DNA of 64,000 nucleotides from an uncultured Verrucomicrobiota bacterium (GTDB lineage: Bacteria; Verrucomicrobiota; Verrucomicrobiia; Methylacidiphilales; CAMAQI01): positions 7,915-71,914 of the forward strand of contig CAZKRU010000001.1 of assembly GCA_964555235.1 (NCBI GenBank). Direction: 5' to 3'. Both the position numbers and the translations under genes were made by a program. The notes beneath the pieces are model-generated. The model was not told the DNA's origin and searched no databases. It saw nothing but the letters and a program-made list of their open reading frames with translations. How positions within the stretch are numbered: the first letter of the stretch is position 1; each line of letters opens with the position of its first letter. Below are positions 3,805 to 26,200 of this stretch, in pieces.

Positions 3805-3876
3805 AGGAGGGATTATTCGATTTAAATTACCTGACGATCGTTGGGTTAGACAGCAAACAAAGAGTCAATTCGAAGC

Positions 3877-3913
3877 ATGATCACACGATAAATCTTAGCG
3901 TGTGATCTGTCAA
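3877..3913 (-). promoter_or_regulatory. Conserved promoter/operator-like motif upstream of array copy 2
   Basis: Coding strand reads TTGACA-gatcacacgctaagatt-TATCGT-gtgatcat: a -35 box, a 17-nt spacer and a TAnnnT -10-like box. A 9-bp inverted repeat GATCACACG (3879-3887) / CGTGTGATC (3899-3907) brackets the core. The motif lies 73 nt upstream of the ATG, and the same architecture recurs at 7323, 13984, 16551 and 17775. Confidence 0.5.
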
Positions 3914-3999
3914 ATTAAATTTCATCAGTCATCGAAAGAACTCTCTTTTCCCCCAACCCTTCGAACGTCAGTCCTTGAAGTCGTCGAGGTCAGATCTGT

Positions 4000-7249: not shown

Positions 7250-7322
7250 AGGGGGGGATTATTCGATTTAAATTACCAGACGATCGTTGAGTTAGATAGC
7301 AAACAAAGAGTCAATTCTAAGC

Positions 7323-7359
7323 ATGATCACACGATAAATCTTAGCGTGTGATCTGTCAA
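7323..7359 (-). promoter_or_regulatory. Conserved promoter/operator-like motif upstream of array copy 3
   Basis: Contains GATCACACG (7325-7333), CGTGTGATC (7345-7353) and the reverse complement of TTGACA (7354-7359). The surrounding ~135 bp (7250-7383) nearly duplicate 3805-3940. The motif lies 74 nt upstream of the ATG. Confidence 0.5.
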
Positions 7360-7493
7360 ATTAAATTTCATCAGTCATCGAAAGTCCCCACTGCTTTCCA
7401 GAAAAATCAACCCAGCCCAAACCCAAAAAGAAATAACGCCGACTTTTTCAGTAGAATCGAATCGTTAGATACGTCCCCATCGCCCGTAGCGCG

Positions 7494-8267
7494 CTAGCGC
7501 GTGTGCCGTAACAGCCAAGTGTAGAGTTCCGGGTTTGCGTAGGTCTCGGTCCACGAATTGTGATTTGCCTCGGGATAGACGGTGAGCTGCACGTCGGTCA
7601 CGGCGACTCTTTTCAGCTCCTTGACCATAAGTTCCGATTCTTCGAGCGGGACCTTCGTATCCTTGGCGCCGTGGAAGGCCCAAACGCCCAGACTCGTTAG
7701 GGCGGATTTGTGTCTATTGCGGACAATATCGAGACGCTGACCCCCACCGCAGATTGGGACGACAGCCCCGAAACGCTCGGGGTACTTCATGGCGACGCTC
7801 CATGTGCCGTAGCCGCCCATGCTGAGACCCGTGAGGTAGATTCGGTGCGGGTCGACTTTGTGCTTCGCGGCGATTTCGTCCGCGAGCACCAGCACGCCGT
7901 CGTCGTCCCACCAAGCGTCTGCGGGGCACTGCGGCGAAACGACGATGAAATTCTCCGCGAGCGCCTTGCCGGCGGCGGACAGCGGCGACTCTCGCAGGAG
8001 CTTCGGAGGCCCGTGCTTCGCGACGAGAGAAGGATCACTGCCACGTTCGCCAGCTCCGTGGAGAAATACGAGCAACGGCCACGTTTTGCTCCCGGTGGCC
8101 TCGTAGCCGGTCGGTAGCGAAAGCAGGTAGGTGTAGCCGACTTTCTTGGTGATCGTGCGCTCGAAGGAGGCGACCGGCTGCGACTCGGCGGCGGAGACCG
8201 CGAGCGCGCCGGCTAGGACAAGCAGAAATAATAGGGACGTATCCCGTTTAACTTTTGAGTTCTTCAT
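7494..8267 (-). CDS. Secreted alpha/beta-hydrolase (carboxylesterase/phospholipase-type, CE1-like)
   Basis: 257-aa ORF with a signal peptide and the motifs LVFLHGAGERG, GLSMGGYG (GxSxG), FHGAKDTKVP and ANHNSW. A GAGGGG Shine-Dalgarno-like element lies 4 nt upstream. Sampled 60-mers are 55-70% GC, against ~35-45% in neighbouring sequence. Confidence 0.85.
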   Translation of the reverse strand: MKNSKVKRDTSLLFLLVLAGALAVSAAESQPVASFERTITKKVGYTYLLSLPTGYEATGSKTWPLLVFLHGAGERGSDPSLVAKHGPPKLLRESPLSAAGKALAENFIVVSPQCPADAWWDDDGVLVLADEIAAKHKVDPHRIYLTGLSMGGYGTWSVAMKYPERFGAVVPICGGGQRLDIVRNRHKSALTSLGVWAFHGAKDTKVPLEESELMVKELKRVAVTDVQLTVYPEANHNSWTETYANPELYTWLLRHTR

Positions 8268-8509
8268 AAACCCCTCTTAACTTCGCTTCTTTCTTGATTC
8301 GTTTTCGAATGCGTTTCAGTGCTGCTGTCACCGCCCTTTCTCCGCTCATTCCACATCTTCGACTCATCTCTTCAAGCGTTTCTCCACTTCGGACACCGCT
8401 TTCTCCCACTCCCATCCTCTTTCCATCCCGCGCAAAGCCGTCTGCTCCTTCCGATTCCCTTTCGCTGCCTTTTTGACTCGCGCCGTAAATTCTTCTCCGC
8501 CGAGATAAC

Positions 8510-8569
8510 TCATGAGGAAAAAACGACCATTAAACTCGCTTGAACCATCTTATTTTGAGCGTATGACAT
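8510..8569 (-). pseudogene. 5' remnant of a further array paralog (about 20-25 codons)
   Basis: The reverse complement reads MSYAQNKMVQASLMVVFSS*, homologous to the MSNVQNKLIKASSMALLFLMGHLGG and MSHVQNKMIQATVIAFLYLMSHFGG starts. It overlaps the stop of 8550..11252 as in the other junctions. After a 1-nt frameshift the homology continues to ...LMSYLGG (~8496) and then ends. Confidence 0.55.
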
Positions 8570-11252
8570 AAATCTCCTGGGCTACTTTTCGTGAGGCTTC
8601 AATCATTTCCAGATAGGGAGTGTCCGTGACACTTAAAAAGCCGTAACCGTGATTTTCGCCTTCCAGAGTGCGTCCTGCCGCATTTTCATCCACCAACGCG
8701 AACCAATGAACACCAACAAAATTAGGATTCGCTGCGGCTCCCCTGACATAGCGGGAAAATTTTACCGCGCGATCCTCCGCATTCTTCGCCTGGACCAGCC
8801 CACCCCCGAAAACACCGCGATCTGTGGAACCAAAATGAAACTCACCAACCATGCAGGGCTTGTCAATTTCAACTGGAGGTTTCCAAGCGGCGATGGTGTC
8901 CCGATAGATATTAAACGAAACCACATCGCAGTATTCAGCGGCGATTTTTACCACTTGCTCATTGTGGTCGGCAAAACGGCACCCCAAATAGAGTTTTTTA
9001 GGGGCAACCTCTTTTACAGCTTTTCTAACACCTTCAAAATACTGCCGGGCAATCATGGCGTTGAATGCTCTCAAGTCTTTAATTCCTGCTTCCGATTGGG
9101 GGATCTCCTTGTAGCTGATCATTTCCTCCCATTTCGACAGTTTGGATCCCCAAGCCTGATTCAGTTTTTCAATCGCTCCGTAGTTTCCCTCGAGATACTT
9201 GACGAACTCGACCTTCACGTAATTGTCTTTGTTGCCGGCCAGCGCCGCCTTGGCTTGAAAAGTATCATCCCGCCAGGACAATTCATTATCAACAAAATAG
9301 CCAATACACATCGGATCATTGATCGAGTCTTTTGTGAATCGAAGAGTTGCCTTTTTTACCTCTCCAACAAATTCTGGATGAAATGGATCAGGAATCGGAT
9401 TGCGGGTATTTGCCTGCCAGGGCAGATTCTTGCACTGCAGAAATACCCAATCGGTATAAGGAATTAGGCCCTTATGGATAATTTTGGGCTCAGACCAATT
9501 TCCAATGGTGTTAAAACCCCAGTTCATCAGTCGCTTAGGCATCAAACTTTCCCAAACATTTTCCCAGTCATTCCCGTATTTCCTCTGAAGGTTGGCACTG
9601 TAAAAACTGAACGTTCTGAGTTTCATTCCCTTGTATTCTCCGTGTTTGATCCCACGTTCATCCGTCGTCGTGATGAACTGACTGAACTCTTTTTCATTTT
9701 TCCAGGGCTCATCTGCAAACCAGCCCTCCCGGCGATCGATTGGAGTGGCAATGCCCTTTAATTTCACGACGTCCATTCCTAGCGAAAAAAAGAGTTTCCC
9801 CTCGGGATCAACCAAGTGCCATTTATTGTTATGCTTTGCTGTATAAAAGGAGCCGGTCGCATTAAGTTGGGGACCCTCAGCCCATCCTCCATAACGATTC
9901 CAGTTAGAGGGACGTGGATTGGAATCAATATACTTTAGTTCCGCCTCTTTTTCACGGGCGATGTCGCCGTCCGTTTTCACCTTACCTGGCCAATCCTGGT
10001 GGATGTATTGTCCGTATTTGTCAATAAATGGAAAAAAGGGCTCTGGGATCACCTCGCCCTTGGGATCAAAGGAACCAGTGGGTTTGATGCTATGGATGGT
10101 GATATCATAAGCTCTCGCCGGGTGGCTAAGAAAAAAGCTTACTTCAATAATATTACTCGGGTCAATCATAGCTCCATGGTTTCCTCTCCCCCCCCAGGGA
10201 GTTTTATGCATCCCCTCGAGTTTCTTCCTCAGATTTTCAGCAAAATAGCGATCCATCTCAATGGATACGATTCCGCTCTCTCCCGGATCAAGACTGATTT
10301 TCCCATTGTTCCTGTTGGATTTACCCGTGGCATTGGGATTATCCACTGTGGCCAACAGCTGGATGGATTCATTCGTATTGTTGGTTAATGCAAACTCAAC
10401 ATGTGTATAGGCCGAAAGATTCCAAGCGCCAGAAGGGGCTTTGAAAACTATATTGGGATAAGGGCTCTTAAATCCCGTCTTTACCCTCACCGCCTTGGCT
10501 CCGTTGATATCAGCAATTTCAAAGACAGAGTCATTGGTTGTGATGAGCGATCTCACATCAGGAGAGGAAAAATCAACCAGCAGAGGCTTTGTCCATGGCT
10601 CATTTTTGACGGTCGACACTGCCGACTTCCGCTCTTCATCCTGAGTTGCCGCTGCCGCCACTGAATTAGCGGTTCCCCCCGCAGGGACTCCGAATGCCTG
10701 AATATTTTTCACGATGAGCACCCCATCCTCTTTCGGTTGAGTGAGAAAAACGTGAATCGCAATAATCGCGGTACGATCGAGCGGATATTGAACTTGCTTC
10801 CCTTTGCTCTCACCAAAAACCACTTCGAAAACTCGCGTTTCACCAGGAGCCAGCGTATCACCTCCCACGATCCATTTTTTCTCTGCAGGAGTTCCTTGAT
10901 TATCAACACGAAGCGAAATCTTTTCCAGGTTTTTTCCCGCATTCGTAATCTCCGTACGAATCCCCGCGTATCCACTTAAATCCCAAGTCCCCGAAGGAGG
11001 TGAAAACTGAACATCGGGATATTTCTGACTTGCCTTAAAATCGATCTTTAAACACTTTTGTCCTCCCACTTCAGAAAGACTGACGTTGGCTTCGCGCGGC
11101 TTTAGTTTTGAGAGATCTGCATCACTTTCCATGTTAAACAGAGATTTCGGCTCGGGTTTCGTCTCCACCGCAAAAGCTCCTCCGAGGTGACCCATGAGGA
11201 AAAGAAGGGCCATTGAACTCGCTTTAATCAGCTTATTTTGAACGTTTGACAT
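8550..11252 (-). CDS. Secreted glycoside hydrolase-like protein, array copy 4
   Basis: 900-aa ORF with the same architecture, including YFVDNELSW and MVGEFHFG motifs. Its start overlaps the stop of 11233..13923 by 20 nt, which suggests an operon. Confidence 0.9.
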   Translation of the reverse strand: MSNVQNKLIKASSMALLFLMGHLGGAFAVETKPEPKSLFNMESDADLSKLKPREANVSLSEVGGQKCLKIDFKASQKYPDVQFSPPSGTWDLSGYAGIRTEITNAGKNLEKISLRVDNQGTPAEKKWIVGGDTLAPGETRVFEVVFGESKGKQVQYPLDRTAIIAIHVFLTQPKEDGVLIVKNIQAFGVPAGGTANSVAAAATQDEERKSAVSTVKNEPWTKPLLVDFSSPDVRSLITTNDSVFEIADINGAKAVRVKTGFKSPYPNIVFKAPSGAWNLSAYTHVEFALTNNTNESIQLLATVDNPNATGKSNRNNGKISLDPGESGIVSIEMDRYFAENLRKKLEGMHKTPWGGRGNHGAMIDPSNIIEVSFFLSHPARAYDITIHSIKPTGSFDPKGEVIPEPFFPFIDKYGQYIHQDWPGKVKTDGDIAREKEAELKYIDSNPRPSNWNRYGGWAEGPQLNATGSFYTAKHNNKWHLVDPEGKLFFSLGMDVVKLKGIATPIDRREGWFADEPWKNEKEFSQFITTTDERGIKHGEYKGMKLRTFSFYSANLQRKYGNDWENVWESLMPKRLMNWGFNTIGNWSEPKIIHKGLIPYTDWVFLQCKNLPWQANTRNPIPDPFHPEFVGEVKKATLRFTKDSINDPMCIGYFVDNELSWRDDTFQAKAALAGNKDNYVKVEFVKYLEGNYGAIEKLNQAWGSKLSKWEEMISYKEIPQSEAGIKDLRAFNAMIARQYFEGVRKAVKEVAPKKLYLGCRFADHNEQVVKIAAEYCDVVSFNIYRDTIAAWKPPVEIDKPCMVGEFHFGSTDRGVFGGGLVQAKNAEDRAVKFSRYVRGAAANPNFVGVHWFALVDENAAGRTLEGENHGYGFLSVTDTPYLEMIEASRKVAQEIYVIRSK

Positions 11253-13923
11253 AAATCTCCTGGGCTAATTTTCGAGAGGCCTCCACCATTTCAAGATAGG
11301 GCGTATCCGTAATACTTAAAAAACCGAAACCGTAATTTTCACAATCACTGACTCGACCCGACGTGGGCTCATCCACCAAAGCAAACCAATGCGCCCCCAC
11401 GATCAGAGGATTTGACGCCGCTCCCGTCACGTAGCGCGCAAACTTCACGGCACGATCCGCGGCATCTTTTGCTTTAGCAAGACCTGGCCCGAAAACCCCT
11501 CGATCTGTGGCACCAAAATGAAACTCTCCGATTATCACTGGCTTATCAATCTCAGCGACCGGCTTCCATCCGGCAACCGTGTCGCGGTAGATGTTGAATG
11601 AAACGACATCACAGTACTCGGCCGAAATCTTAACCACCTGGGCATTGTGATCGGCAAAGCGACAGCCCAGATATAGCTTCTTGGGAGCGACTTCTTTCAT
11701 CACCTTACTGACAATCTCGAAATATTTCCGGGCGATTTTTGCATTAAAATCTCTCAAATCCTTGACCGCCGCATCCGTGGTTGGAATCTCTTTGGCTCCG
11801 AGCATTTTTTCCCATTGGGAATACGATGTTCCCCATGCCGCATTTAATTTTTCGATCTTGCCGTAGCTCGCCTGAAGTTCCTTGATCAGCTCTACTTTGA
11901 CCGGTTTTGAAGCGTCACCCACCATGGCTGCCTTCGCCTGAAACGTGTCATCGCGCCAAGAAAGTTCGTTATCAACAAAGTACCCGATACAGAATGGATC
12001 CTCGAGACTTTCACTGGTGAATTGAACCGCATTTTTTCTGATTTCTTCCTCAAATGTCGGATGAAACGGATCCGCGATGGGATTACGGGTATTCGCCTGC
12101 CATGGAAGGCTTGGCGAACGATGAAAGACCCAATGAGTGTAAGGAATTCCCCCTTTTTTCAGAATTTTCGGATCAGACCAATTTCCAATCGTATTAAAAC
12201 CCCAATTCATGAGCCGTTTGGGCATCAGGTCGCACCAAGTGTTCTCCCAATCTGCCCCATATTTTCTTTGGAGATTGGCACCGAAAAAATTAAACGAACG
12301 GATCTTCTGCCCTTTATATTCTCCATGCTGAACCGCCGTTTCTTTAACCGTCGTCACTAATTCACTAAATCCCTTTTCATGCTCCCAAGGGGCATCCGCA
12401 AACCATCCATCTCTATGATCAATTGGCGTCCCATTCTTCGTCTGCACCACATCAATCCCCATGGAAAAGAATAAACGACCTTCGGGGTCGACAAGGTGCC
12501 ACTTTCCTTCGTGCTTCGCCGTGTAGAAATGTCCGGTCGCTTTCAATTGCGGGCCATCCGCCCAACCTCCGTAACGATTCCAGCTCGAAGGGCGAGGATT
12601 CGTATTGATATATTTTAATTCAAGTGCTTTCTCACGAGCAAAATCGTCGTTCGACTTCACCTTCCCCAGCCAATCCTTGTGAATGTATTGTCCGTAACGA
12701 TCAATGAAGGGGAAAAAGGGCTCGGGAATGACCTGAGTGGATGCATCAAAAGCGCCCACCGCTTTAATGCTGTTGACCGTGAATTCGTAAGGCTTTGCAG
12801 GAGTATTTAAAAAGAGACTGACTTGCACGATATTCGAAGGATCAATCATCGGGCCGTATTGAGAACGAACGCCCCACGGGGTGTAGCGCATTCCGGCGAG
12901 CTTCTCTCTCAATTTCTCAGCAAAGTAACGATTGAAGGTAACCGTGAGTGTTCCACTCTCACCCGGATCGAGACTCAGCTTCCCTCCATTGGAGTTGGAT
13001 TTTCCTGTGGCTCCCGGATTATCGACTCGTCCATTTATCTGAAGCGACTCTTGGCTCTTGTTCGTAATACCAATCTCAATTTGATTGTAAGCTTCGAGAT
13101 TCCAACTGCCATTCGCTGCGTTGAACGCGACGTTCGGAAAAGGCTTCGCGAAGCCGGTCGTGACCCGAAGCGCCTTCTGACCATTCACCTCAATAAATTC
13201 CTGCTTTGAATCGAGACCGGTAATGCGAGAGATGGCATCAGGTTCAGCGAAATTAAAGAGCTCAGGTTTCGTCCAAGGCTCATTTTTTACGGTCGGCCCC
13301 ACTGCGGCACCCGTCCCCTTAGGCTCGGAAGCCGCTTTGACAATCGGCGCCCCCTTCTCTGCGGTGGAACCTCCGAATGCCTGAATACTTTTCACGATGA
13401 GCACCCCATCCTCTTTCGGTTGAGCGAGAAAAACGTGAATCGCAATAATCGCCGCACGGTCGAGGGCATATTGAGCTTGCTTCCCTTTGCTCTCACCAAA
13501 AATCACTTCGAAAACTCGCGTTTCTCCAGGAGCCAGCTTATCACCTCCCGTGATCCATTTTTTCTCAGCAGGAGTCCCTTGATTATCAACACGAATCGAA
13601 ATTTTTTCCAGGTTTTTGCCCGCATTCGTAATCTCCGCACGGATCCCGGCGTATCCGCTTAAATCCCAAGTCCCGGAAGGAGGCGAAAACTGAACATCGG
13701 GGTACTTCTCACTTGCCTTAAAATCGATCTTTAAATATTTTTGTCCACTCCCTTCAGAAAGACTGACACTGGCTTCACGCGGCTTTAATTTTGAGAGATC
13801 CGTATCACTTTCAACCGCGAAAAGAGATTTAATGTTGCCTTCGGGTTTCCCCTCCTGCGCTGAAACTTGAATGTCATATCCTCCCAAGAGAAGGAGTGAG
13901 AAGAGTAAGGATTTTAATTTCAT
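11233..13923 (-). CDS. Secreted glycoside hydrolase-like protein, array copy 5
   Basis: 896-aa ORF with signal peptide MKLKSLLFSLLLLGG. The first CBM-like repeat is ~88% identical to that of copy 4, while the rest is ~60-65% identical. YFVDNELSW and IIGEFHFG motifs are present. Confidence 0.9.
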   Translation of the reverse strand: MKLKSLLFSLLLLGGYDIQVSAQEGKPEGNIKSLFAVESDTDLSKLKPREASVSLSEGSGQKYLKIDFKASEKYPDVQFSPPSGTWDLSGYAGIRAEITNAGKNLEKISIRVDNQGTPAEKKWITGGDKLAPGETRVFEVIFGESKGKQAQYALDRAAIIAIHVFLAQPKEDGVLIVKSIQAFGGSTAEKGAPIVKAASEPKGTGAAVGPTVKNEPWTKPELFNFAEPDAISRITGLDSKQEFIEVNGQKALRVTTGFAKPFPNVAFNAANGSWNLEAYNQIEIGITNKSQESLQINGRVDNPGATGKSNSNGGKLSLDPGESGTLTVTFNRYFAEKLREKLAGMRYTPWGVRSQYGPMIDPSNIVQVSLFLNTPAKPYEFTVNSIKAVGAFDASTQVIPEPFFPFIDRYGQYIHKDWLGKVKSNDDFAREKALELKYINTNPRPSSWNRYGGWADGPQLKATGHFYTAKHEGKWHLVDPEGRLFFSMGIDVVQTKNGTPIDHRDGWFADAPWEHEKGFSELVTTVKETAVQHGEYKGQKIRSFNFFGANLQRKYGADWENTWCDLMPKRLMNWGFNTIGNWSDPKILKKGGIPYTHWVFHRSPSLPWQANTRNPIADPFHPTFEEEIRKNAVQFTSESLEDPFCIGYFVDNELSWRDDTFQAKAAMVGDASKPVKVELIKELQASYGKIEKLNAAWGTSYSQWEKMLGAKEIPTTDAAVKDLRDFNAKIARKYFEIVSKVMKEVAPKKLYLGCRFADHNAQVVKISAEYCDVVSFNIYRDTVAGWKPVAEIDKPVIIGEFHFGATDRGVFGPGLAKAKDAADRAVKFARYVTGAASNPLIVGAHWFALVDEPTSGRVSDCENYGFGFLSITDTPYLEMVEASRKLAQEIYVKRSK

Positions 13924-16584: not shown

Positions 16585-17670
16585 ATTCGGCAAAATGCGC
16601 GTATAAAGGCCGTCCGCAAAGATTTGAGCGCCCTTGGGAGTCAGATGGACCGCATCCACTAAACTTTTTTCGGTCGTAGCAGTGATGATCTCCTCCCCAT
16701 TGACGACAAAGATATTGGCGTCACCTGCTGCTTTTCGTGCCGTTACGATCTCGGTGACCGCATTTCGATAAGGCTCAATCGTCACTCCATTTCCATTCAC
16801 AACCGTCTTCGTGTAAGTTTGGCGAATCAAAAAGATCTTCGCATCCGGATGACTCGTCCGAATCGTTCGAACATCCTCATCCAATCCCTTTTTGTAATCA
16901 GCCACACTCTTCTCCCCCTGCCAATCATTGTAGCCAATCAGATAGGTGATCATGTCAACTTTGGTCCAGTTGTTTACCAATGCGGTGATCCGGGGAGCAA
17001 TCTTACTTCCCCCACTGGCAAGATTGAAAAGCTCATATCCCAGCTTTTCCGATAAGAGAAAGGCGTAGGTCTTGTAGGCTGCCGATGACTGACCTGTTCC
17101 ATGCGTAATCGAATCCCCCAGCGCGAGGTAAACCTTCTTCTGAGGCACCACCAGCGGCACCAAAGGTTTTCCTGGGACCAGATCAATTCCTGTCAGAAAC
17201 GGATTCGACCAGCTCGGCAATACAATGTCATAGGTCGACTCACCCGCCACCGCACTTGTCAGCGACACGGTCATCTCATGCTGTGTGTTGGGAAAGTTGA
17301 ATGCTTGGAGCCAGACGCCATTCACATAAACCCCAAAACTTGAACCTTTATTCACTTCGCCAGCGATCGTCTTAAAATTGACGTTGATCGTCGGACTGGC
17401 AGTGCGAAAGAGAATCCGAACCCCCGAGGTCGTTCTCGCACGGGTTCCAAATGCCTGAAGCTGTCCAACCGGGATCGAAAGAATCTCTTCGGGCATCCGA
17501 AGAAACTCGACCCCCAAGGCGTCATTGACTGCAAACTTCGAACCCTGAATCAAAATGTTGGGATCCGTCGGTGCGACAGAGACCAAACTCTGAGCCATCC
17601 CGTAAAACGGGGTCAATGCTAAAAAGAGAATCGCTACCATACTACGTTTAAGGATCGATTGTATTTTCAT
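16579..17670 (-). CDS. Secreted SGNH/GDSL hydrolase (CE2-like esterase architecture)
   Basis: 363 aa with a signal peptide and an N-terminal beta-sandwich. LALGDSITHG supplies the block I Ser and DAVHLTPKG the block V DxxH. Confidence 0.85.
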   Translation of the reverse strand: MKIQSILKRSMVAILFLALTPFYGMAQSLVSVAPTDPNILIQGSKFAVNDALGVEFLRMPEEILSIPVGQLQAFGTRARTTSGVRILFRTASPTINVNFKTIAGEVNKGSSFGVYVNGVWLQAFNFPNTQHEMTVSLTSAVAGESTYDIVLPSWSNPFLTGIDLVPGKPLVPLVVPQKKVYLALGDSITHGTGQSSAAYKTYAFLLSEKLGYELFNLASGGSKIAPRITALVNNWTKVDMITYLIGYNDWQGEKSVADYKKGLDEDVRTIRTSHPDAKIFLIRQTYTKTVVNGNGVTIEPYRNAVTEIVTARKAAGDANIFVVNGEEIITATTEKSLVDAVHLTPKGAQIFADGLYTRILPNL

Positions 17671-17774
17671 AGGATTTGGATTGAGTTCTAATTTATCGAA
17701 CTGTTTTTCTGATGATTGCCCCTCGAACTTGCGGACAGATTTCCCTCATGAGCTTCAATAAAGGTAAATTCATA

Positions 17775-17811
17775 ACGATCACAGGTTAAATCATTAAATA
17801 ATCTTCGTCAA
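17775..17811 (-). promoter_or_regulatory. Conserved promoter-like motif upstream of SGNH hydrolase gene
   Basis: Coding strand reads TTGACG-aagattatttaatgatt-TAACCT-gtgatcgt, 105 nt upstream of the ATG at 17670. Confidence 0.45.
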
Positions 17812-17850
17812 CACTAAAATATTGTAATTGTGATTTATTTTTAAAATGTG

Positions 17851-18156
17851 GATACCCCTTTCTGGATTAGCGACACGTGAGGCCCAGGCGGCATATCACC
17901 GGGTATCTTAAAGCTTCCGAGCGACGATCTTAACTTGGGAAACGCAAAGTACGATTTCTCCGGAAGTGTGGTTAATGAGTATTTTTAAAGCTACGCTCGA
18001 CGATATAGGCCGGCGGAAGGGATGCTCAAAGAGTTCCTTCATGAACTTCCCGTCAGGGGCCGATTGCTCTCAAGGCGGCGAATGCTGCCGCCATGGCAAT
18101 CGCTGTCACCGCAAGAGAACGGTACGAGATTGAGTCCGCCACTAAGGGGGCTCAAG
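17851..18156. other. Structured non-coding segment of unknown identity (possible ncRNA or decayed element end)
   Basis: No convincing ORF. Nested stems include GATACCC 17851-57 / GGGTATC 17901-07, CGATTGC 18061-67 / GCAATCG 18096-102 and an inner GGCGGC 18074-79 / GCCGCC 18087-92. The segment abuts the 42-bp arm-like repeat. Confidence 0.25.
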
Positions 18157-18198
18157 AAATTCCAAAAACGATCCCCCGTACTGGCAATTCTACTGGCA
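18157..18198. repeat. 42-bp repeat shared with the integrase-proximal arm of the island (contains TACTGGCA-N4-TACTGGCA)
   Basis: aaattccaaaaacgatcccccgtactggcaattctactggca matches 58136-58177 at 40/42 positions. The flanks are unrelated on both sides. Confidence 0.65.
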
Positions 18199-18261
18199 CG
18201 AGCCCGATACCGTAGGAGTTACAAAAAATCATTATTTCCGTCAGCACCATAAGTTCAGATA

Positions 18262-18870
18262 TCAACTCTTCAAGCCTTCACTAATCGTTTTTGCTCGAAA
18301 ATAAAGTGCATCATTACCAATGGCTCGCATCCACTCAAGCGCTTTGGATATTTCTGAAGTAGTCGCATCCAGCGCAATCAAGTCTTGGACGTGACGCCGC
18401 CCCTTTTGTCCCTCACAAGCCGCATACAATTTCAAACTGATTAGATCCTGACGACTGGCAAAACATATCGTTAAACAAGGGCCATAATCGACCCTCTTTG
18501 CTCGAAATTGAATTCCCTCGGGAAGCGGCAAATCCAAAAGCGACATCGCTTGATGATTCACCCAATCGGACTGGGCGTTCAAATCCCGGGCAGTTTCCGT
18601 GACAAGATGACAAAAACCTTCAGGCAACGGATTGCGTGTGATTTCCCCTTGATCAAGAACCGCGATAACATCCACATCACGGGTCGTCCTTGAAATTCCA
18701 TGTTGAAGAATCAAATCCGCACCACCCACCACCAGTAATGAAAGCGGAGAATGATCCACAAGTGCCATCTTTCGACCCAAACGAATCAGGAGAGCCTCGA
18801 TCTCCTCCCTGGAATGAACCTCCCGCATTGACTCAAACCCGTTCCACAGGCTTGAACGAACCATCAACAT
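18262..18870 (-). CDS. Nucleotidyltransferase-fold protein (AbiEii/DUF6036-like), cassette copy A
   Basis: 202 aa with the polymerase-beta NTase signature LLVVGGADLILQHGISRTTRDVDVIAV (hGG...DxD). The downstream SRQDLISLKLYA...HVQDLIAL region resembles AbiEii/DUF6036-type NTases. The likelier start is M15 (18828), 4 nt after the stop of the upstream ORF. Confidence 0.75.
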   Translation of the reverse strand: MLMVRSSLWNGFESMREVHSREEIEALLIRLGRKMALVDHSPLSLLVVGGADLILQHGISRTTRDVDVIAVLDQGEITRNPLPEGFCHLVTETARDLNAQSDWVNHQAMSLLDLPLPEGIQFRAKRVDYGPCLTICFASRQDLISLKLYAACEGQKGRRHVQDLIALDATTSEISKALEWMRAIGNDALYFRAKTISEGLKS

Positions 18871-19072
18871 CCCAATGTTTTTCTTGCTTCATACGCACCT
18901 GTCGAGTAGGCGCCTCAGGAAACCGCTTGGGATTTGGAAAATCATTAAGGGCAATCACCCAAAAAGCAGAGGACTGGCGATCCCACAATCCAATATGGGA
19001 ATTGCGCCCTTCCCCTCGATACCAAACTCCATCCTCCAGAGCTTCCATCGAAAAATATGTCTCGGTTGCCAT
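18833..19072 (-). CDS. Small protein of unknown function coupled to NTase gene, copy A
   Basis: 79-aa ORF (MATETYFSMEALEDGVWYRGEGRNSHIGLWD...) tightly coupled to the downstream NTase gene. Both cassette copies are identical at nucleotide level. No family is recognisable by eye. Confidence 0.6.
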   Translation of the reverse strand: MATETYFSMEALEDGVWYRGEGRNSHIGLWDRQSSAFWVIALNDFPNPKRFPEAPTRQVRMKQEKHWDVDGSFKPVERV

Positions 19073-19466
19073 ACTCAGACTCTAACATAGCCTTTGAGAA
19101 GTGTCGAGCCGATCAAAAACATCTTCAACCCAATCGATTATACGTCTGCCGAAGTGCCAAAGTCTCTTTCTGGTAACTCCGGGAGTTTCATTTTGAACGC
19201 ACGAAAGGTGATTTTCGGTGAGAAGCATACTGCCACACGTGAGATCCGCATTCCGAAAATAACCTTCACGGATGAAGATTAAGATAAAATTCGCCCGCCC
19301 GATTATTTTAAATCCAAGTCGATTTTTGGCCTTTGAAAGCCATTTTCAGAAGAAAATCCATTGATCATAGCGATTTTCACGGACCCCTTCCTTATTCAAA
19401 ATAAGGTCGGCGCGATCTAAGATTTGTTATGGCTTTTGTTATGACTTTTCTATTTTTAGAGACTCA

Positions 19467-19609: not shown

Positions 19610-19629
19610 TACTGGCAAATTTACTGGCA
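19610..19629. repeat. TACTGGCA-N4-TACTGGCA arm-like site at distal island end
   Basis: tactggcaaatttactggca lies 94 bp inside the distal att repeat. Related copies are at 18179-18198 and 58158-58177. Confidence 0.55.
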
Positions 19630-19692
19630 CGAACCCGATGCCGCAGGAGTTACGAAAAATTATTATTCCAGTCATCACCATAAGTTCAGAGA

Positions 19693-20301
19693 TCAACTCT
19701 TCAAGCCTTCACTAATCGCTTTTGCTCGAGAATAAAGCGCATCATTACCAATGACCCGTATCCACTTAAGTGCCTCGGATATTTCCGAAGTAGTCGCATC
19801 CAGCGCAATCAAGTCTTGGACATGACGCCGCCCCTTTTGTCCCTCGCAAGCTGCATACAATTTCAAACTGATGAGATCCTGACGACTGGCAAAACATATC
19901 GTTAAACAAGGACCATAATCGACCCTCTTTGCTCGAAGTTGAATTCCCTCAGGAAGCGGCAAATCCAAAAGCGGCATCGCTTGATGATTCACCCAATCGG
20001 ACTGGGCGTTCAAATCCCGGGCCGTTTCCGTAACCAGATGGCAAAAACCTTCAGGCAGCGGATTGCGTGTGATTTCCCCCTGATCAAGAACCGCAACAAC
20101 ATCCACATCACGGGTCGTCCTTGAAATTCCATGTTGAAGAATCAAATCCGCACCACCCACCACCAGTAATGAAAGCGGAGAATGATCCACAAGTGCCATC
20201 TTTCGACCCAAACGAATCAGGAGAGCCTCGATCTCCTCCCTGGAATGAACCTCCCGCATTGACTCAAACCCGTTCCACAGGCTTGAACGAACCATCAACA
20301 T
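19693..20301 (-). CDS. Nucleotidyltransferase-fold protein (AbiEii/DUF6036-like), cassette copy B
   Basis: 202 aa with 9 substitutions relative to copy A, all from residue 69 onward. The hGG...DxD signature is the same. Confidence 0.75.
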   Translation of the reverse strand: MLMVRSSLWNGFESMREVHSREEIEALLIRLGRKMALVDHSPLSLLVVGGADLILQHGISRTTRDVDVVAVLDQGEITRNPLPEGFCHLVTETARDLNAQSDWVNHQAMPLLDLPLPEGIQLRAKRVDYGPCLTICFASRQDLISLKLYAACEGQKGRRHVQDLIALDATTSEISEALKWIRVIGNDALYSRAKAISEGLKS

Positions 20302-20503
20302 CCCAATGTTTTTCTTGCTTCATACGCACCTGTCGAGTAGGCGCCTCAGGAAACCGCTTGGGATTTGGAAAATCATTAAGGGCAATCACCCAAAAAGCAG
20401 AGGACTGGCGATCCCACAATCCAATATGGGAATTGCGCCCTTCCCCTCGATACCAAACTCCATCCTCCAGAGCTTCCATCGAAAAATATGTCTCGGTTGC
20501 CAT
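20264..20503 (-). CDS. Small protein of unknown function coupled to NTase gene, copy B
   Basis: 79 aa, identical to 18833..19072. Confidence 0.6.
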   Translation of the reverse strand: MATETYFSMEALEDGVWYRGEGRNSHIGLWDRQSSAFWVIALNDFPNPKRFPEAPTRQVRMKQEKHWDVDGSFKPVERV

Positions 20504-20790
20504 ACTCGAACTCTAGCATAGCCTTTGAGAAGTGTCGAGCCGATCAAAAACATCTTCAAGTCAGTGTGGATATGATCCGGCGAGTGCTGAAAGGCCTTCA
20601 AAAAGAAAAATCCGTGATCTGCATCGAAAAAGGACAGCAGGCTAAATGGAAAAAGGCCAATTAGGTAATGAATTGGGTAATGAGCAAGAAGAATCCCGAG
20701 CCTTTAAGGATTTTTCGACTGAAGGATTGATTTTGATTTAACGGAATGCCCGAGAAACATTTGACGAGGGGAGATCTCATCCATCACAAT

Positions 20791-20878
20791 ACGTAGCAGG
20801 CCATGACCTGCGGAGTTTTCCTTTTTTGAGGAGCTTGCCGACGAGATCGTAAAAATGGGCCCCATTTTTACTATGCTC
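20791..20878. repeat. Left arm of ~88-bp imperfect inverted repeat
   Basis: acgtagcaggcc...gtaaaaatgggccccatttttactatgctc matches the reverse complement of 21694-21778 at ~75-80% by eye. It contains the palindrome GTAAAAATGGGCCCCATTTTTAC (20849-20871). Confidence 0.6.
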
Positions 20879-21140
20879 ATTGTTGACAAAATGGGGCATT
20901 TTTTGACCCATTTAGCAGGCTTCCGGTTCCTGTTCCACACCTCTCTCCGAAGCCAAAACGGGCAACTTGCCCGCTCCCTCCACCTCGGCCGCAAGAGGCG
21001 AGACGGAGCGGTTGCCAATCATCCGCAACAGGGCAATACCTCGAATTCACTCTTTTTCAGCCTTGTGAAAGACTGATAAAAAATCCTCAGACGTCTCTCC
21101 TAAGCTCCCGCTTGAGGGGCGGAACCACATCCACAAAAGA

Positions 21141-21221
21141 CTTCGAACAGAGATCGAACGAACTTCGAACACCGTTCGAGCTTCGTTCGAAGCTTGTTCG
21201 ATCTTCCCGGAAAAGTCCGGG
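21141..21221. repeat. TTCGAAC-rich imperfect palindrome cluster plus CCCGG/CCGGG hairpin
   Basis: cttcgaacagagatcgaacgaacttcgaac-acc-gttcgagcttcgttcgaagcttgttcgatc has about 22/30 arm complementarity. It is followed by cccggaaaagtccggg (21206-21221). Confidence 0.5.
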
Positions 21222-21693
21222 ATTGAGAATTTTCATCACCCTGAAAATCGACGCCGCAAGCAATTGACACCGGGAGTTGGTTCGCTTTTCTAAGTGATTC
21301 TAACGATGTCAAAATATCACGTACCATCCCGATCACTCACTTGAAAACCACCCTCCATCCCGACCCTGGCATTGAATCACGACATCTCCGGTCGGGAAAG
21401 AACCTGCCGACCCAACCCCTCTGGAAGGAGTTTTCCACCAACCCTCTTCCCCTTGAAATTCCAACCGCCAAGGAATGGAACGAGGATCTCGTTCATCGCG
21501 TTGGCATGAAAAAGAAGCTCTTTGTAAGCCACTCACCCTGCCCGGCATTCCAGCCCGCGCCTTCATCCATGAACCCTTTCCCCCTTGCCATCAACCACGC
21601 CCCCATCCGGGCAAATACCTATTTATCCCGTGTCGGTTCCATACGTCAGGACTCGGCTCAAAACCAAGAAATGGTCACCATTTCTTTTGAAAT

Positions 21694-21778
21694 GAGCATA
21701 GCAAAAATGGGCGCCATTTTTGCCTTCTCGTCATTCCTCCTCAAAAAACCGGACTCCACAGGTCTGGGCCTGCTACGT
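21694..21778. repeat. Right arm of ~88-bp imperfect inverted repeat
   Basis: Contains GCAAAAATGG-gcg-CCATTTTTGC (21701-21723). AGAAATGGT-c-ACCATTTCT lies just upstream (21667-21685). Confidence 0.6.
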
Positions 21779-21927
21779 CCACAACTTAAAAATCCAATGA
21801 AAACCAAACGCTATAACATCACTTTTGATACGTCCGAAAAGATCCCAGCAGCCATCCGGGCTCGGGAAATCAAAGCCAAGCTCAAACTTTTTCACGAAAA
21901 TTTTTCCAAAAAGTTTGAGTTAAATCC

Positions 21928-22614
21928 CTAGCCAACCGCTAATTCTTGTAATCGATCGAGGACCATCGGAATCCGATTTTGATTGCCGGGCCCCGCCGGA
22001 AAATGTCCCGGCAGAGCTTCACGAAAAGCATTGTTCTTCAACAAAATTGAAAATTCCGCCGCCAAATAGAGCCTTAAATCGGCGGGACCTTGACGGACTT
22101 CGGCAACAATTCCTGAGCGACCATCGACAACAGCCAAGAGATCTTCCAGATCATGACTGGCAAAATAGTCTCCCTCGCCGCGATCTTTGAACGCCTCCAG
22201 TTTTGTCGCCAGAAAGTATTTCGCTTCAATAATTGGAGCCATTTGGTCCGGGCTCACCTGTTTATTTGAAGCACTTGCCAATGCTTCCCGAAACCAGCGA
22301 GACCGTAATCCCAAAACAGTGGAATCAATCGGCATCACATCCACTTTGCAATTTTCGATCAGGTAACGGCAAATCGGAGCCCCTTCAGAAGTGTCGTTCA
22401 CGAAGCCATCCCTCCTCAATCGCGATTCAAGTTTGGCGTAGCTCGCCTGCGTTGTGACTTCGACAATTGCATCCACATCTTTGGTTGGACGAATCTCGTG
22501 CAGTTCCGGATGATCCATCAGCAACGGAACAATGCTACCACCCAAAAAGCCATGAGGAACCTCGAGCCGTTGCAAACGGCGGGTAACAATGGCAATGGAT
22601 TCAACCGGACTCAT
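21928..22614 (-). CDS. Nucleotidyltransferase-fold protein, AbiEii-like toxin candidate
   Basis: 228 aa with the NTase motif FLGGSIVPLL...RPTKDVDAIVEV and KLEAFKDRGEGDYFASHDLEDLL near the C-terminus. A 4-nt ATGA overlap links it to the upstream gene. Confidence 0.8.
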   Translation of the reverse strand: MSPVESIAIVTRRLQRLEVPHGFLGGSIVPLLMDHPELHEIRPTKDVDAIVEVTTQASYAKLESRLRRDGFVNDTSEGAPICRYLIENCKVDVMPIDSTVLGLRSRWFREALASASNKQVSPDQMAPIIEAKYFLATKLEAFKDRGEGDYFASHDLEDLLAVVDGRSGIVAEVRQGPADLRLYLAAEFSILLKNNAFREALPGHFPAGPGNQNRIPMVLDRLQELAVG

Positions 22615-23162
22615 TCAGACACCGTCTGGGCTTCTCCTAACGATTCCAATCGTTGGCGCAATTCCGAAGCAGCCATGTTCCGTTCACGCGCTCGACCCTC
22701 CCTCAAGGCATCCACTAAGGCCAATAATTCATAAAGCTTTGAATCTCGACGGGCGGCATAAGGTACATTCGAGAAGAGCGGTTCCAAGGCATAACCACGA
22801 ACCTTGCCTTCCGCATCAGGCCAAACAGGGGACAGATCTTTTCCTTTCTCTTGCTGAAGCTGGTCACATAAGGGTGGAGCGGCATAGGAGGTCGGCATTC
22901 CTCGGGTGGGAGCGCCACGACGCGCCGGGAAAGCATATTTGACCCCGTGAAGTAGATATTCGAGGAGCGCACTGACTCGAGGCCTTTTTGCCTTTAAATC
23001 AAACAACCCGGCCTCAGAAGCCCTGCGGCTAGCTCCATGAACTTCTCCCACGCTCATTCCCAATTCTCCTGCCATTTCGGCATAGGTTCGCAACGTGGGC
23101 ATCGAGAGCCACTTGAGCAGAACTACCACATCTTGAGATTTCGCAGTCACACTTATATTCAT
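22611..23162 (-). CDS. Winged-HTH-like partner protein, AbiEi-like antitoxin/regulator candidate
   Basis: 183 aa. The N-terminal segment TYAEMAGELGMSVGEVHGASRRASEAGL looks like an HTH. The gene is translationally coupled to the NTase gene. Confidence 0.65.
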   Translation of the reverse strand: MNISVTAKSQDVVVLLKWLSMPTLRTYAEMAGELGMSVGEVHGASRRASEAGLFDLKAKRPRVSALLEYLLHGVKYAFPARRGAPTRGMPTSYAAPPLCDQLQQEKGKDLSPVWPDAEGKVRGYALEPLFSNVPYAARRDSKLYELLALVDALREGRARERNMAASELRQRLESLGEAQTVSE

Positions 23163-23183
23163 AATTCATGAATTGTGAATATA
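23154..23183. promoter_or_regulatory. 30-bp near-perfect palindrome over the start of the wHTH gene (candidate autoregulatory operator)
   Basis: tatattcataattcatgaattgtgaatata is 28/30 self-complementary and includes the start codon at 23160-23162. Confidence 0.55.
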
Positions 23184-23225
23184 CAAGGCATTTCTATCAC
23201 TTTTTGCCCCCTTCAGGACATTCAA

Positions 23226-26200
23226 CTAAAACCGACTGGTAACGCCCAAATCCAACTGATGAGAACAAGACTCTAAGTTGACGCGGGCTTCATAGCCAAA
23301 GTTGAGTGTTGTCGTTTCGCTAAATCTGAGTTGGAATCCGGCTCCCGGAATGATCATCTCCCGCCCTGCTCCTTCTGGATGCACGGTAAAGGCATCGCCT
23401 CCTGCGGCAAACTGGGCGCGAATCTCGTTTGGTTTCTCCCATTGATGCGAACCCATCAGTCTAAGTTCCGGGATCCATTTCCAGCCGTTGTAGTTAAACG
23501 GACGACTCACTCGCATTCCGGCTCCCGTCTCTGCGGAGGCTCCCGCTTGAGAACCAAGATTCAATCGCGCTGCGGAGCCCCGCTCCTTGTATTTCTCAAT
23601 CCATTGATACCCGTAGTCTAGTTTTGCGATTGGGCCCCAGACCCATTCCTCCGCCTGAAAATCGACTCCTCCGACGATTTGTCCTGATAAATCATACCCT
23701 TGCGTTGAGCCTGATGCGGTCTCTCCGATAAATCCAATATTTCGTTTCGTATCAAAGCTCGTTGTTCCTGCTCCGAGACTTCCATTCAAATAATACCCGT
23801 TCTTGTGGTACCCTCCGTAGATTCCGATTCTTCCGGAATTTGCCTCCACCGATCCTCCGCCCCCTCCAAGTTTCGTGTCGGCGTACCCTTGACCTGCAAA
23901 GAACCCGGCCGTTACTTCTTTCGTTAGTTCCTGATCAATCCCTGCCGTGATTCCTCCCAATCGGTTCTCATACCCGATCCTTCTTTCATCCGAATCGACA
24001 TCCGAGTAGCTCCCGGTCGTATTCACAAAGAATCCGGTCTTTCCTGAAAACTTCTTCTTCGGGATCAGGATTGCTCCCTTTTCGACGGCGAGCAGTTCAT
24101 TTTCATAATCTCCATCGAGCGTTTGAAGGGTGATTCCATTCAGACTGACTCCTCGATCTCCCCATCGGATCTGACTTAGTCTTTGGTTTGTTCCGCTGTT
24201 ACTGATGCTTCCGAACTGTTTCACCGTCGCACTCATCGCCGTTAACTTTTCAGGACTCAATTGATCGTAGGCCGTCTTTAATCCGCTGTTGTCTTGCCGC
24301 ATCAATCCATTGAAGATCTTTCCGACATCACTCGTTGCGGTGACTCCCGAACTTCCTGCTACCGTTCTGGCATCAATCGCTGCCGGACGAAAACTTTGCA
24401 AGGCTCGACCGACGGAGTTCTGGTTTGAATTGAATCCGGAGACATTTCCAAAATCTGCAGGAACTGCGAAGAGATTCACTTCCGTGTTCCGATACTCCGG
24501 CATCCAGCTCACTCCGTTGCCATTGCCTGAAAAGTCATACGACTGAAACGAGCCTGTCACCGAGGAGGCCGTCAGGAAGGTGACTTTCGTTCCGAACTGA
24601 GGAACGAAGTTTGTTGAACCAGAGAAGATCGTGAACCCTTGCAAGGTTCCTCCATTGATGACAGCAGCTCCTCCGACTTGCGTTTGATCGTAAAAACCAC
24701 TTCCGTTTCCAGCGGTCGCTCCGTCGATTTCAATCAGAAGCGAGCCTCCGGGATTGATGGTGAGAGAACCGACTTGTTGGATCCCGGGGGAATTTCCCGG
24801 ACTGTACAGTGCTCCGCTATTAATCACGAGATCTCCGGAGATCGTTCCACGTCCCTTCAGGGTTCCTCCGTTCGCCACGACGTTCCCTGCCCAATTCCCA
24901 CCCGCTGACGTTCCGATCGTGAGCGTTCCTGAGTTGACCGTCGCCATCCCCGTTGAGGTGTTTGCTCCAATGAGCGTTTGAGATCCCGTTCCGGTTTGCG
25001 TAATTCCAGTGGTACCCCCATAAGCGGTCGCGTCAGGCGCGAGCTCCAAGTTATTCGCCGACAAACTTACGGTTAGACTGATCGTATTTGCATTGTACAC
25101 CAGTGCACCCGAAAATCCTCCTCCCGCGATTGTGACCGCCCCCAGTTCATTGGTAAATCCATGTGCAGTTGCCGTGGTTCCAGAATCACTGAAAAAATCG
25201 TAAAGGGTAAAACTCCCGGCAGCAAAACCAGCTCCTTGATTGATCGTGATCGCATTACTGTTCAATACGACTTCGCCATTACTGTAATTAAAGAAGCGAA
25301 CTTTATCGCTCGTCGTTCCCAACGTGAAAACAAAGGTGGAGCCTGAATCAAAGGTCGTTGATCCTGCCAGCGCCGCTGCAGCATTATCGAAAACGAGCGA
25401 CTGATTTCCATTCCCCGGGGTTACGGTTCCTGAAAAATGCAACTGCCCAGTACTCCCATTCGCTACCGTGATCGTGCGACTTGTGTTACCGGTCGAAAGA
25501 TTGCCCAAGGTCATATTCGCTCCTGTTAAAGTAAAGGTCGGATTACCGGTGAGTGTGGTTGCGCCAAAAATAAGCCCGGCGGTTCCTGAAGTGACATTCG
25601 CTCCTTTGTTCACCGTCAACGGATTGGTGCCGACGGAGAGCGTCCCCATCGTGTGATTAATTCCGGCTCCTGCAGTGGCCCGATCAATGGTAATCGTGGT
25701 ATCTCCTGAGCTTGCCGCATTGACGGTAGTATTATTCCCAAAAGTCGTCGCCGTATCATTCGTTAAAGTTAACGTCCCCTTATTCAGAGTGAGTACCCCT
25801 TTCGTCCCCGTTTGCCCGAGTGAGTTTCCATCCCGAAGATCGATTTGATCCCCGGTATTCACTCCATTCAGCACGAGTGTCCCCGTAAAACCGGTATTGG
25901 CGGCGCCAATCAACATCTTCACGGTATTTGTCCCATTCGTCGACCCGCTAAAGGTCAAGGTATTGCCGCCCACCAATTGCCCGGCGGTGTTCAATTGAAA
26001 GACCGTTCCCGCGAGAGAGGTAATTTGAATCTCTCCATTGCCCCCTGAAAAATCGAGCACACGACTCGCCCCCAAAGTAAAGTTGTTCGCGCGAAATCTT
26101 CCCCCACCAAAAATCAAATCATTGGCGGCATCTCCCAACCGGCCATCATTCAGAGTAACTAGCGTCCCCCCATTGAGGAGCCAGTTTCCGGTGAACGTAT

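Follow-up and report, generated by a model that had tools for sequence, protein, structure and literature searches.

In a stretch of 64,000 nucleotides from the genome of an uncultured Verrucomicrobiota bacterium (contig CAZKRU010000001.1; the whole stretch is called the window here) two inverted arms face each other across an interior of 783 bp. We consider it probable that a family of mobilisable or conjugative elements is the source of these arms, that both derive, with divergence, from its origin of transfer (oriT) and that they persist as orphan relics in a Verrucomicrobiota chromosome. Most likely, the present state of the window is that of an evolutionary relic within a small islet of toxin-antitoxin (TA) and defence genes. 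Because the architecture of the family is present, whereas the strict nick consensus and a relaxase gene are not, the arms were filed as orphan copies of a MOBP-like oriT from an uncharacterised relaxase clade. The original prediction, which was made from the letters alone, had pointed to a gene-poor segment with an inverted repeat and several palindromes and had proposed a protein-binding or structured DNA region. This general proposal stands, and an oriT-like site is the one listed candidate that is backed by evidence.

Two facing oriT-like arms

The inverted repeat of about 88 bp is real; it was recovered by a repeat search and by blastn and exceeds chance. The repeat search resolved three collinear pieces, 20840-20894/21678-21732 (55 nt, 78% identity), 20791-20816/21753-21778 (26 nt, 88%) and 20822-20833/21737-21748 (12 nt, 100%), which blastn merged into a single match of 20791-20881 with 21691-21778 (78%). 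The arm extents used here, 20791-20905 on the left and 21668-21778 on the right, include the outer palindromes (Table 1). Over about 120 nt the identity between the two arms was 66%, the overall range was 66-78% and the longest perfect match measured 12 nt. A 30-nt arm core occurs at two places only in the 64-kb window (0 expected). The four palindromes of the type AAATGG-N-CCATTT which had been noticed earlier were all found again and exceed chance. Two are located in each arm, 36 bp apart; the strict form AAAATGG-N3-CCATTTT occurs twice in the window versus 0.05 expected. The arms fold better than shuffled sequences (z = -3.3 and -2.7).

Each arm displays the parts of the family element which is described in the next section. 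The inverted repeat IR-A is an intact palindrome and the nick-box variant of the clade is kept in both arms, IR-B is weak in both. Read on the antisense strand, the arms have CTATGCTCATT next to IR-A. The scores of the arms in a covariance model of the family, R1, were 65-69 bits, i.e. inside the range of intact elements. The left arm stops abruptly after CTACGT at 20791 and no accessory gene follows downstream. The similarity between left and right arm was not above that of either arm to two relatives from elsewhere, L004 and L005 (relatives are designated by L numbers). With just 66% identity, and no greater nearness to each other than to L004 and L005, the arms did not arise by a recent local duplication; they go back either to two separate insertions or to a duplication that is old. 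A third R1 match in the window (42090-42206, plus strand, 19.9 bits) was dismissed as chance because it is located within the gene of a major facilitator superfamily (MFS) transporter and has no hairpins.

Architecture and covariation of the element family

The scan with the arm-core pattern covered one genome per species, 185,579 species representatives. It returned a single relative, L004, on a 40-kb contig of a Verrucomicrobiota metagenome-assembled genome. There, a DUF3991/Toprim protein and a replication-type protein with HTH_36/DnaA_N domains are followed by the arm homologue, directly after it an 81-aa gene, and then a 411-aa protein. The N-terminus of the 81-aa product resembles a 44-aa open reading frame (ORF) after the right arm of the window. 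The 411-aa protein carries the motif HHDTDNLHMHV and matches relaxase families below their thresholds. L005, L008, L089 and L090 repeat this arrangement, with Toprim first, then the arm homologue, the small gene and the relaxase. Neighbours in the relatives are a VirD4/TraG-like coupling protein (L008, L089), ParA-type ATPases (L005, L089) and ArdC (L089, L090). A scan of metagenomes with the relaxase alignment yielded 80 further loci (L009-L088); a metagenome scan with the alignment of the small accessory protein gave pattern matches, none of which was confirmed. In more than 60 related loci an element of about 110 nt is located between the Toprim/DUF3991 gene and the genes for the accessory protein and for a MOBP-like relaxase of about 400 aa.

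Read on the strand of the mobilisation (mob) genes, the parts of the element follow each other in the order box AG(G/C)A(T/A)AG, IR-A, IR-B, CTCC, IR-C and T-N-CG. The sequence of IR-A varies by clade (AAAAATGGG..CCCATTTTT, GATTTCCC..GGGAAATC or CACTTTTCC..GGAAAAG). IR-B is a hairpin of a T-run and an A-run, which is reversed to A-run/T-run in some clades, and IR-C combines a variable stem with a near-invariant loop, TCAGG. In a MAFFT alignment of 30 sequences (A6) 83% of the cells were paired and double changes were observed in 13 of 15 pairs; IR-C alone was 99.3% paired. In an alignment of 50 distinct sequences (A7) 92.2% of the cells were paired, again with double changes in 13 of 15 pairs. 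By helix, nine out of ten pairs in IR-A and four out of five in IR-C had double changes in A7, and IR-C was 97.6% paired. None of 500 shuffles reached the observed values, and every slid control remained at or below 59%.

The covariance model, which was built from the alignment of 30 sequences, was searched against 85 loci, the 80 from the relaxase scan and five fetched earlier. It matched 56 of them, always on the strand of the relaxase; where the distance was checked, the match ended about 240-265 nt ahead of the start of the relaxase gene. Five loci that had not been used for training scored 65-84 bits at the expected place. In the 56 of 85 loci, and likewise in L089, L090 and L215-217, the element always precedes the accessory-relaxase operon and shares its strand. 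A clade missed by the model has the same gene order: the Toprim protein, ending in ..KDWNDDL, is followed by a box that reads CAGGATAG or CAGGATGG, by inverted repeats of some length and by the small gene.

Elements of the window clade have a second palindrome about 36-40 bp past the nick box, in which the half-site of IR-A is found again. The half-site of the left outer palindrome is found past the nick box in L004, L005, L089 and L090 as well. The centres of the palindromes tend to differ among elements and are common to both sites in L089 and L090. Such a recurring half-site would be the product expected of a cognate dimeric protein that binds on both flanks of the nick, and this would explain the four palindromes that caught the eye originally.

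Candidate nick box, putative relaxase and accessory protein

The nick consensus of MOBP systems, (C/T)ATCCTG(C/T), is found beside an inverted repeat in an intergenic location upstream of the relaxase gene (PMC3772185). Of the 50 distinct elements of the family examined here, 25 have CTATCCTG directly after IR-A when the strand opposite to the mob genes is read, and in 21 the octamer fits the consensus exactly. The boxes of other clades are CTTTGCTC, CTATCCCG or CTATGCTC. The distance from the end of IR-A to the presumed nick is 7 nt. The variant CTATGCTC, which the window arms carry, is present also in the intact elements L004, L005 and L090, in the partly decayed L216 and in L033.

For the relaxase 242 relatives were identified in the protein collection, several of them with precomputed PF03432 hits. 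The motif HHDTDxLHxHV, which contains three histidines, is invariant in the family. The protein was assigned as a relaxase because of sub-threshold matches to PF03432, MobL and MobP2, the invariant three-histidine motif, the fold matches of an AlphaFold2 (AF2) model and its conjugation-type neighbourhood. A tblastn search of the 72,556 plasmids in PLSDB with this relaxase gave no match.

Several points weigh against the interpretation of the arms as transfer origins and are considered together here. The designation oriT itself was derived from position, architecture and nick-box match and is putative in this sense. The strict MOBP consensus is not attained in the window arms, which have TATGCTCA and differ in two of six core positions. 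Nine of twelve members of the relaxase family matched PF03432 just under the threshold (best 22.9 versus 24.6 bits), matches to MobL and MobP2 were weaker, and a curated threshold was reached in none of the libraries (PF03432, MobP2, TraI_MobP). The AF2 model of the relaxase (predicted local distance difference test, pLDDT, 75) had the relaxases NES, TraI-pCU1 and MobA-R1162 (4ht4, 3l57, 2ns6) as top Foldseek matches at weak E-values of 0.03-0.2. When the relaxase alignment was used as a profile against PDB sequences, the sole relaxase hit was marginal (9qq7, E 0.05). The accessory protein appears to be ribbon-helix-helix (RHH)-like by the order of its predicted secondary structure; the AF2 monomer (pLDDT 69) has an extended N-terminus and helices at 14-27 and 32-44. 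Its fold stayed unconfirmed: there was no fold match and no hit in Pfam or NCBIfam, and a profile match to 2kel, which we take to be an RHH protein, was weak (E 0.55). IR-C with its TCAGG loop is better conserved still and is close to the accessory start codon; nicking or recognition might take place there instead, or the hairpin might belong to the transcript. Lastly, no relatives were detected of 20906-21296, the approximately 390 bp of the interior with the TCGAAC array and the CCCGG hairpin, nor of 20560-20790.

A scheme for the nick position, the binding proteins and transfer in the family may be drawn from the sequences. Dimers of the accessory protein would bind the AAATGG-N3-CCATTT palindromes on either side of the nick box. 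The relaxase would recognise IR-A and would cut the antisense-to-mob strand 7 nt past it, after CTATCCTG in half of the family and after CTATGCTC in the clade of the window. The nicked strand would then leave the cell in 5' to 3' direction, with the mob genes behind it. The candidate nick boxes of the window both point into the 783-bp interior. The left arm would be nicked on the plus strand after 20878 and transfer would head rightwards into the interior. The right arm would be nicked on the minus strand between 21694 and 21693 and transfer would head leftwards, again into the interior. Thus transfer from either arm would have the interior in the lead, then the opposite arm and then the flanks. 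Presumably the sites in the window are inert without cognate proteins in cis; they would be active only if a co-resident element provided relaxase and accessory protein in trans.

Gene relics and a sister copy

Relics of two genes of the parent element came to light when the longest ORF (21341-21931) was used as query in an exhaustive HMMER search. Upstream of the right arm lies the 3' end of a DUF3991/Toprim primase-like gene; the matching protein P0128 contains the domains PF13154 and PF13155. The flanks of the relic match in another frame and contain stop codons, therefore 21297-21566 is a pseudogene. Downstream of the arm an accessory gene has lost 34 codons in frame and retains the N-terminal 22 and about 20 C-terminal residues. 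Its N-terminus aligns with the accessory proteins of L004, L005, L006 and L008. Thus on the right the window keeps Toprim pseudogene, spacer, oriT and the accessory gene with its internal deletion. The left side has a bare oriT; remnants of partner genes were not found in 20560-20790 and 20906-21296. No ORF for a relaxase, a replication (Rep), Toprim or coupling protein and no type IV secretion system gene was identified in the 64 kb.

Accordingly, the description of the segment as gene-poor holds in that no ORF is coding by codon usage or Pfam, and needs amendment in that two gene relics are detectable. A real conserved gene, which the original prediction had regarded as contrary evidence, exists here only as these two pseudogene fragments. 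The codon-usage scores of ORFs in 20560-21930 ranged from -0.35 to +0.05 and none was coding-like (real genes 0.25 +/- 0.12, wrong frames -0.30 +/- 0.19). The same ORFs had no credible Pfam match; the best E-value, 0.013, was far below curated cut-offs. Automatic gene callers place ORFs across the oriT element, with predictions of 120, 152 and 179 aa at window 21569-21931, for P0126 and at L008 2227-2766, respectively. In protein databases these ORFs group only through DNA conservation. The same applies to a short peptide start shared by the arms (MSI[AV]KMG), which had been regarded with distrust from the beginning, and justifiably so. The shared start reflects conservation at the DNA level and not a gene: a 12-nt block, CTCCTCAAAAAA, is identical in both arms but falls into a different frame in each, and three intact relatives, L004, L005 and L090, have AAAGAGCATAG and thus no ATG.

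Intact modules are present in the sequencing runs that contain the window, P0004 on L006/L007, which is the closest intact element, and P0007 on L090/L091. The contig L006 starts within the oriT, and its identity to positions 21752-21838 of the window is 87.5%. A sister copy (L215, L216 and L217, from Logan SRR12822860, SRR12816580 and SRR12808456, positions 147-1729) stems from the same run series as the window contigs L001-3. It consists of a 250-aa Toprim, the oriT, an accessory gene of full length and a relaxase of which 122 aa are left after truncation. It abuts non-mobile genes, i.e. a fatty-acid desaturase, a short-chain dehydrogenase/reductase (SDR) and alginate-export genes. Its positions 680-1178 aligned with window 21353-21838 by blastn at 80.3% nucleotide identity over 503 columns.

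Table 1. Features of the two putative oriT arms and of the sequences between and beside them (window coordinates; a dot marks features without strand).
Feature	Position	Strand	Evidence
oriT-L, left oriT-like arm	20791..20905	-	covariance model R1, 65.0 bits at 20775-20887 (-); aligns with L004, L005, L089, L090, L216
IR-C hairpin, left arm: GCAGG / CCTGC, 6-nt loop	20796..20811	-	sequence and family covariation
IR-A palindrome, left arm: GTAAAAATGGG-C-CCCATTTTTAC	20849..20871	-	sequence, repeat search, family covariation
Candidate nick box, left arm: CTATGCTC	20871..20878	+	same position as CTATCCTG in 25/50 family elements
Outer degenerate palindrome, left arm: CAAAATGGGGCATTTTTTG	20887..20905	.	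sequence, repeat search
TCGAAC array, three direct then three inverted hexamers, exact 11-bp period	21141..21206	.	sequence, repeat search, fold
7-bp hairpin TCCCGGA-AAAG-TCCGGGA	21205..21222	.	fold
3'-end relic, DUF3991/Toprim primase-like gene	21297..21566	+	P0128 residues 199-240 match 21413-21538, 69%, E 2e-14
Spacer from Toprim relic to right arm, leading side of right oriT	21567..21667	+	kept in sister copy; spurious ORF P0126 aligns from 21563
oriT-R, right oriT-like arm	21668..21778	+	R1, 68.7 bits at 21685-21794 (+); L006 1-88 matches 21752-21838, 87.5%; L216 80%
Outer palindrome, right arm: GAAATGG-TCA-CCATTTC	21668..21684	.	sequence, repeat search
Candidate nick box, right arm: + strand GAGCATAG, - strand CTATGCTC	21694..21701	-	nick-box comparison
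IR-A palindrome, right arm: GCAAAAATGG-GCG-CCATTTTTGC	21701..21723	+	sequence, family covariation
IR-C hairpin, right arm: ACAGG / CCTGC	21758..21773	+	first pair broken (A.C); G there in L006, L216
Internally deleted accessory gene, 44 aa, RHH-like	21797..21931	+	tblastn of P0130 residues 6-101 on 21734-21919, 34-residue gap

Alternative explanations

Could the element serve the accessory-relaxase operon solely as its promoter, operator and 5' leader? In that case the palindromes would be autoregulatory operators, IR-B and IR-C would be structures of the transcript and the arms would be dead promoters. The element is always found just upstream of the operon and on the operon strand, IR-C ends 19-40 nt from the start codon, the palindromes recur with element-specific centres as for a cognate DNA-binding protein, and the covariation suits RNA as much as single-stranded DNA (ssDNA). 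However, an exact antisense MOBP nick consensus at 7 nt from an inverted repeat is unexpected in a promoter, and no sigma-70-like promoter was found within the arms; promoter and terminator scans gave counts at chance level. We regard this possibility as unlikely. Moreover, the roles of promoter and oriT are not exclusive; known oriTs such as that of RP4 also hold tra promoters. Quite unlikely, in our view, is a variant in which the facing orphan oriTs have been kept because they work in trans. A co-resident element of the family would nick the arms and initiate chromosomal transfer in the manner of Hfr (high frequency of recombination) strains. TA and defence genes (DUF6036 pairs, PDC-M21; see below) would be exported both ways, and the interior would serve as a common leading region with a TCGAAC hairpin on either strand.

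Two inverted arms of about 100 bp around 783 bp without an intact gene are also what one might see with the terminal inverted repeats of a non-autonomous transposon of about 1 kb, i.e. a miniature inverted-repeat transposable element (MITE) or the relic of an insertion sequence (IS), as had been suggested. This is largely refuted and, as it stands, extremely improbable. The homologues of both arms lie in the interior of plasmid-like elements, as single copies, and on the right the homology runs past the arm into gene relics on both sides. There is no clear target-site duplication (CACAAT versus CCACAAC), no further arm copy exists in the window, and the scan of species representatives met with one other genome only. 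The sequence divergence of the arms, which are no nearer to each other than to L004 and L005, does not suit terminal repeats either. Inverted repeats around a short non-coding segment could likewise be recombination sites at which the interior of 0.8 kb is inverted as a phase switch; relaxases such as TrwC can recombine two oriT copies, and a Mob/oriT recombination system offers a comparison. Yet the orientation of the window recurs, at 99.97% identity, in the two public contigs which span the region and which come from different runs; the longest perfect stretch shared by the arms has 12 nt; and a scan of the flanking ORFs and of 20 other large ORFs found no recombinase or relaxase gene. An inversion switch is therefore very improbable. 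A partition-like site, another early suggestion, found no backing as this set of ORFs contained no ParA or ParB gene.

It is just as hard to believe that the arms encode a small RNA or a short peptide (MSIxKMG...), or that the region regulates the adjacent TA genes. In favour, the arms fold better than shuffles and gene callers put ORFs P0125 and P0126 over them. Against a small RNA, Rfam searches at gathering and at permissive thresholds gave nothing relevant in the region, merely sub-threshold matches to miRNA-like hairpins; in the window the sole match above the gathering threshold was a tRNA-Cys at 58221-58292. Against a peptide stand the difference in frame between the arms and the missing ATG in relatives. 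A regulatory hub for the TA modules, as originally contemplated, is not supported: the TA pair is located entirely outside the arms in a duplicated unit of its own, with a promoter-like site (20538-20510) just upstream of the start codon of the proximal copy. In addition, in relatives the element accompanies the mob operon, not TA genes. The interpretation of the arms as orphan oriT relics is retained.

The TCGAAC array and the genomic neighbourhood

The 64-bp palindrome of TTCGAAC units at 21141-21204 and the CCCGG hairpin next to it are present as first described, and both exceed chance. TCGAAC is located at 21143, 21154 and 21165, GTTCGA at 21174, 21185 and 21196, and the palindrome folds with z = -5.2 on the plus and -4.1 on the minus strand. 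As a guess, the array might be an iteron-like binding array or an ssDNA hairpin in the leading region of the left element. Iteron or centromere-like arrays with an 11-bp period are known, for example parC of plasmid R1. The array in the window is similar in that its six hexamers, three in one direction and three in the other, all look to the same side of the helix; unlike such systems, no partner protein was found for it and the motif is not conserved in relatives. Two candidate roles were rejected. TCGAAC is not a conserved feature of the leading region, with 1.2 per kb upstream of the element versus 1.7 per kb downstream. It also is not a special phage motif; hexamer arrays at an 11-bp period are common in viral contigs (IMG/VR, L092-L214) in heterogeneous gene contexts, and TCGAAC is about twice as frequent as permuted hexamers (61 stretches versus 26 and 36 for two permutations). 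Two of these contigs, L139 and L147, have a window-like arrangement, TCGAAC three times and then GTTCGA, and share the 16-mer TTCGAACACCGTTCGA.

On the left of the arms a TA-like pair is tandemly duplicated (18179-19128 and 19610-20559, period 1431 bp). It consists of a 79-aa protein, identical in both copies, and a 202-aa DUF6036/AbiEii-like nucleotidyltransferase, the copies of which differ at few residues. Public short-read contigs end at the edge of the duplication (20530). A DUF6036 nucleotidyltransferase pair is also situated, in opposite orientation, between accessory gene and relaxase in the intact relatives L008 (3072-3960), L089 (5069-5960) and L090 (5069-5903); these pairs have no detectable sequence similarity to that of the window. 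On the right, genes for 228 and 183 aa converge on the arm (21928-23162, minus strand). They match PDC-M21B and PDC-M21A, a candidate defence pair of PADLOC (E 3.5e-55 and 5.9e-44), and have no Pfam match. Repeats of at least 11 nt resembling attachment sites were not found at the borders of the islet (17600-18300 versus 23100-23300). The neighbourhood is ordinary chromosome with sulfatases, glycoside hydrolases and the MFS transporter. At 1111-13923 (minus strand) four consecutive paralogous ORFs of about 900 aa are followed by a subtilase and a GDSL esterase. The one ORF of these that was scanned, 1111-3804, had agarase-CBM-like and GH42-like matches. The region looks like a polysaccharide-degradation cluster typical of Verrucomicrobiota.

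Implications

With the reading as orphan oriT relics the spacer of the window becomes an ordinary object, mobile-element debris in a TA/defence islet of a polysaccharide-degrading Verrucomicrobiota chromosome. At the same time a compact and strongly covarying oriT architecture is defined, a nick box with three inverted repeats. The module of Toprim, oriT, accessory protein (75-81 aa) and relaxase of about 400 aa is widespread in metagenomes, with more than 80 loci of a clade missed by curated models and by the plasmid database. The relaxase clade could be described as a MOB subfamily with an oriT model of its own. For uncultured lineages, in which there is no conjugation genetics, the covariance model could be a means to annotate transfer origins, and the nick-box variants CTATCCTG, CTTTGCTC and CTATGCTC constitute a natural series for relaxase specificity. 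If orphan copies did work in trans, this would be a route for the export of chromosomal genes.

Comparison with known systems

The closest known systems are RP4/IncP with its relaxase TraI and the Ti plasmid with VirD2 and the T-DNA borders. Like these, the family has an inverted repeat directly 5' of the nick box, a box that conforms to (C/T)ATCCTG(C/T) in 21 of 50 elements, and an intergenic location upstream of accessory and relaxase genes from which the nicked strand would lead away. The motif HxDxD...HxH is shared by the relaxases. Unlike RP4 and VirD2, the relaxase of the family remains below every curated threshold and has no tblastn match in PLSDB. Its oriT has three inverted repeats, among them the hairpin with the near-invariant TCAGG loop, and the clade of the window uses the box CTATGCTC.

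A second comparison is offered by tfs4 of Helicobacter pylori, which has a VirD2-like relaxase outside the established MOB families and a MOBP-type nick box (PMC3772185). Its oriT, an inverted repeat plus TATCCTGC, belongs to a chromosomal island and closely precedes the relaxase gene there (PMC3772185). Both systems thus combine an unconventional relaxase with an ATCCTG-type box and an inverted-repeat oriT. Yet tfs4 is intact and self-transmissible and its nicking has been demonstrated, whereas the copies in the window are without a relaxase and two of them face each other.

Finally, the arms may be compared with orphan or mimic oriTs and with Hfr-like transfer. An oriT without a relaxase of its own can be used in trans by a co-resident element, as exemplified by oriT-only staphylococcal plasmids. 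A Bacillus subtilis chromosome bearing oriT_LS20 was reportedly mobilised by a helper plasmid (PMC5787278). Unlike such sites, the arms of the window look like by-products of decay, and a facing inverted pair is not a functional design that has been described. What they have in common with them is an oriT without a relaxase and, in the very sequencing runs that contain the window, related modules which are intact.

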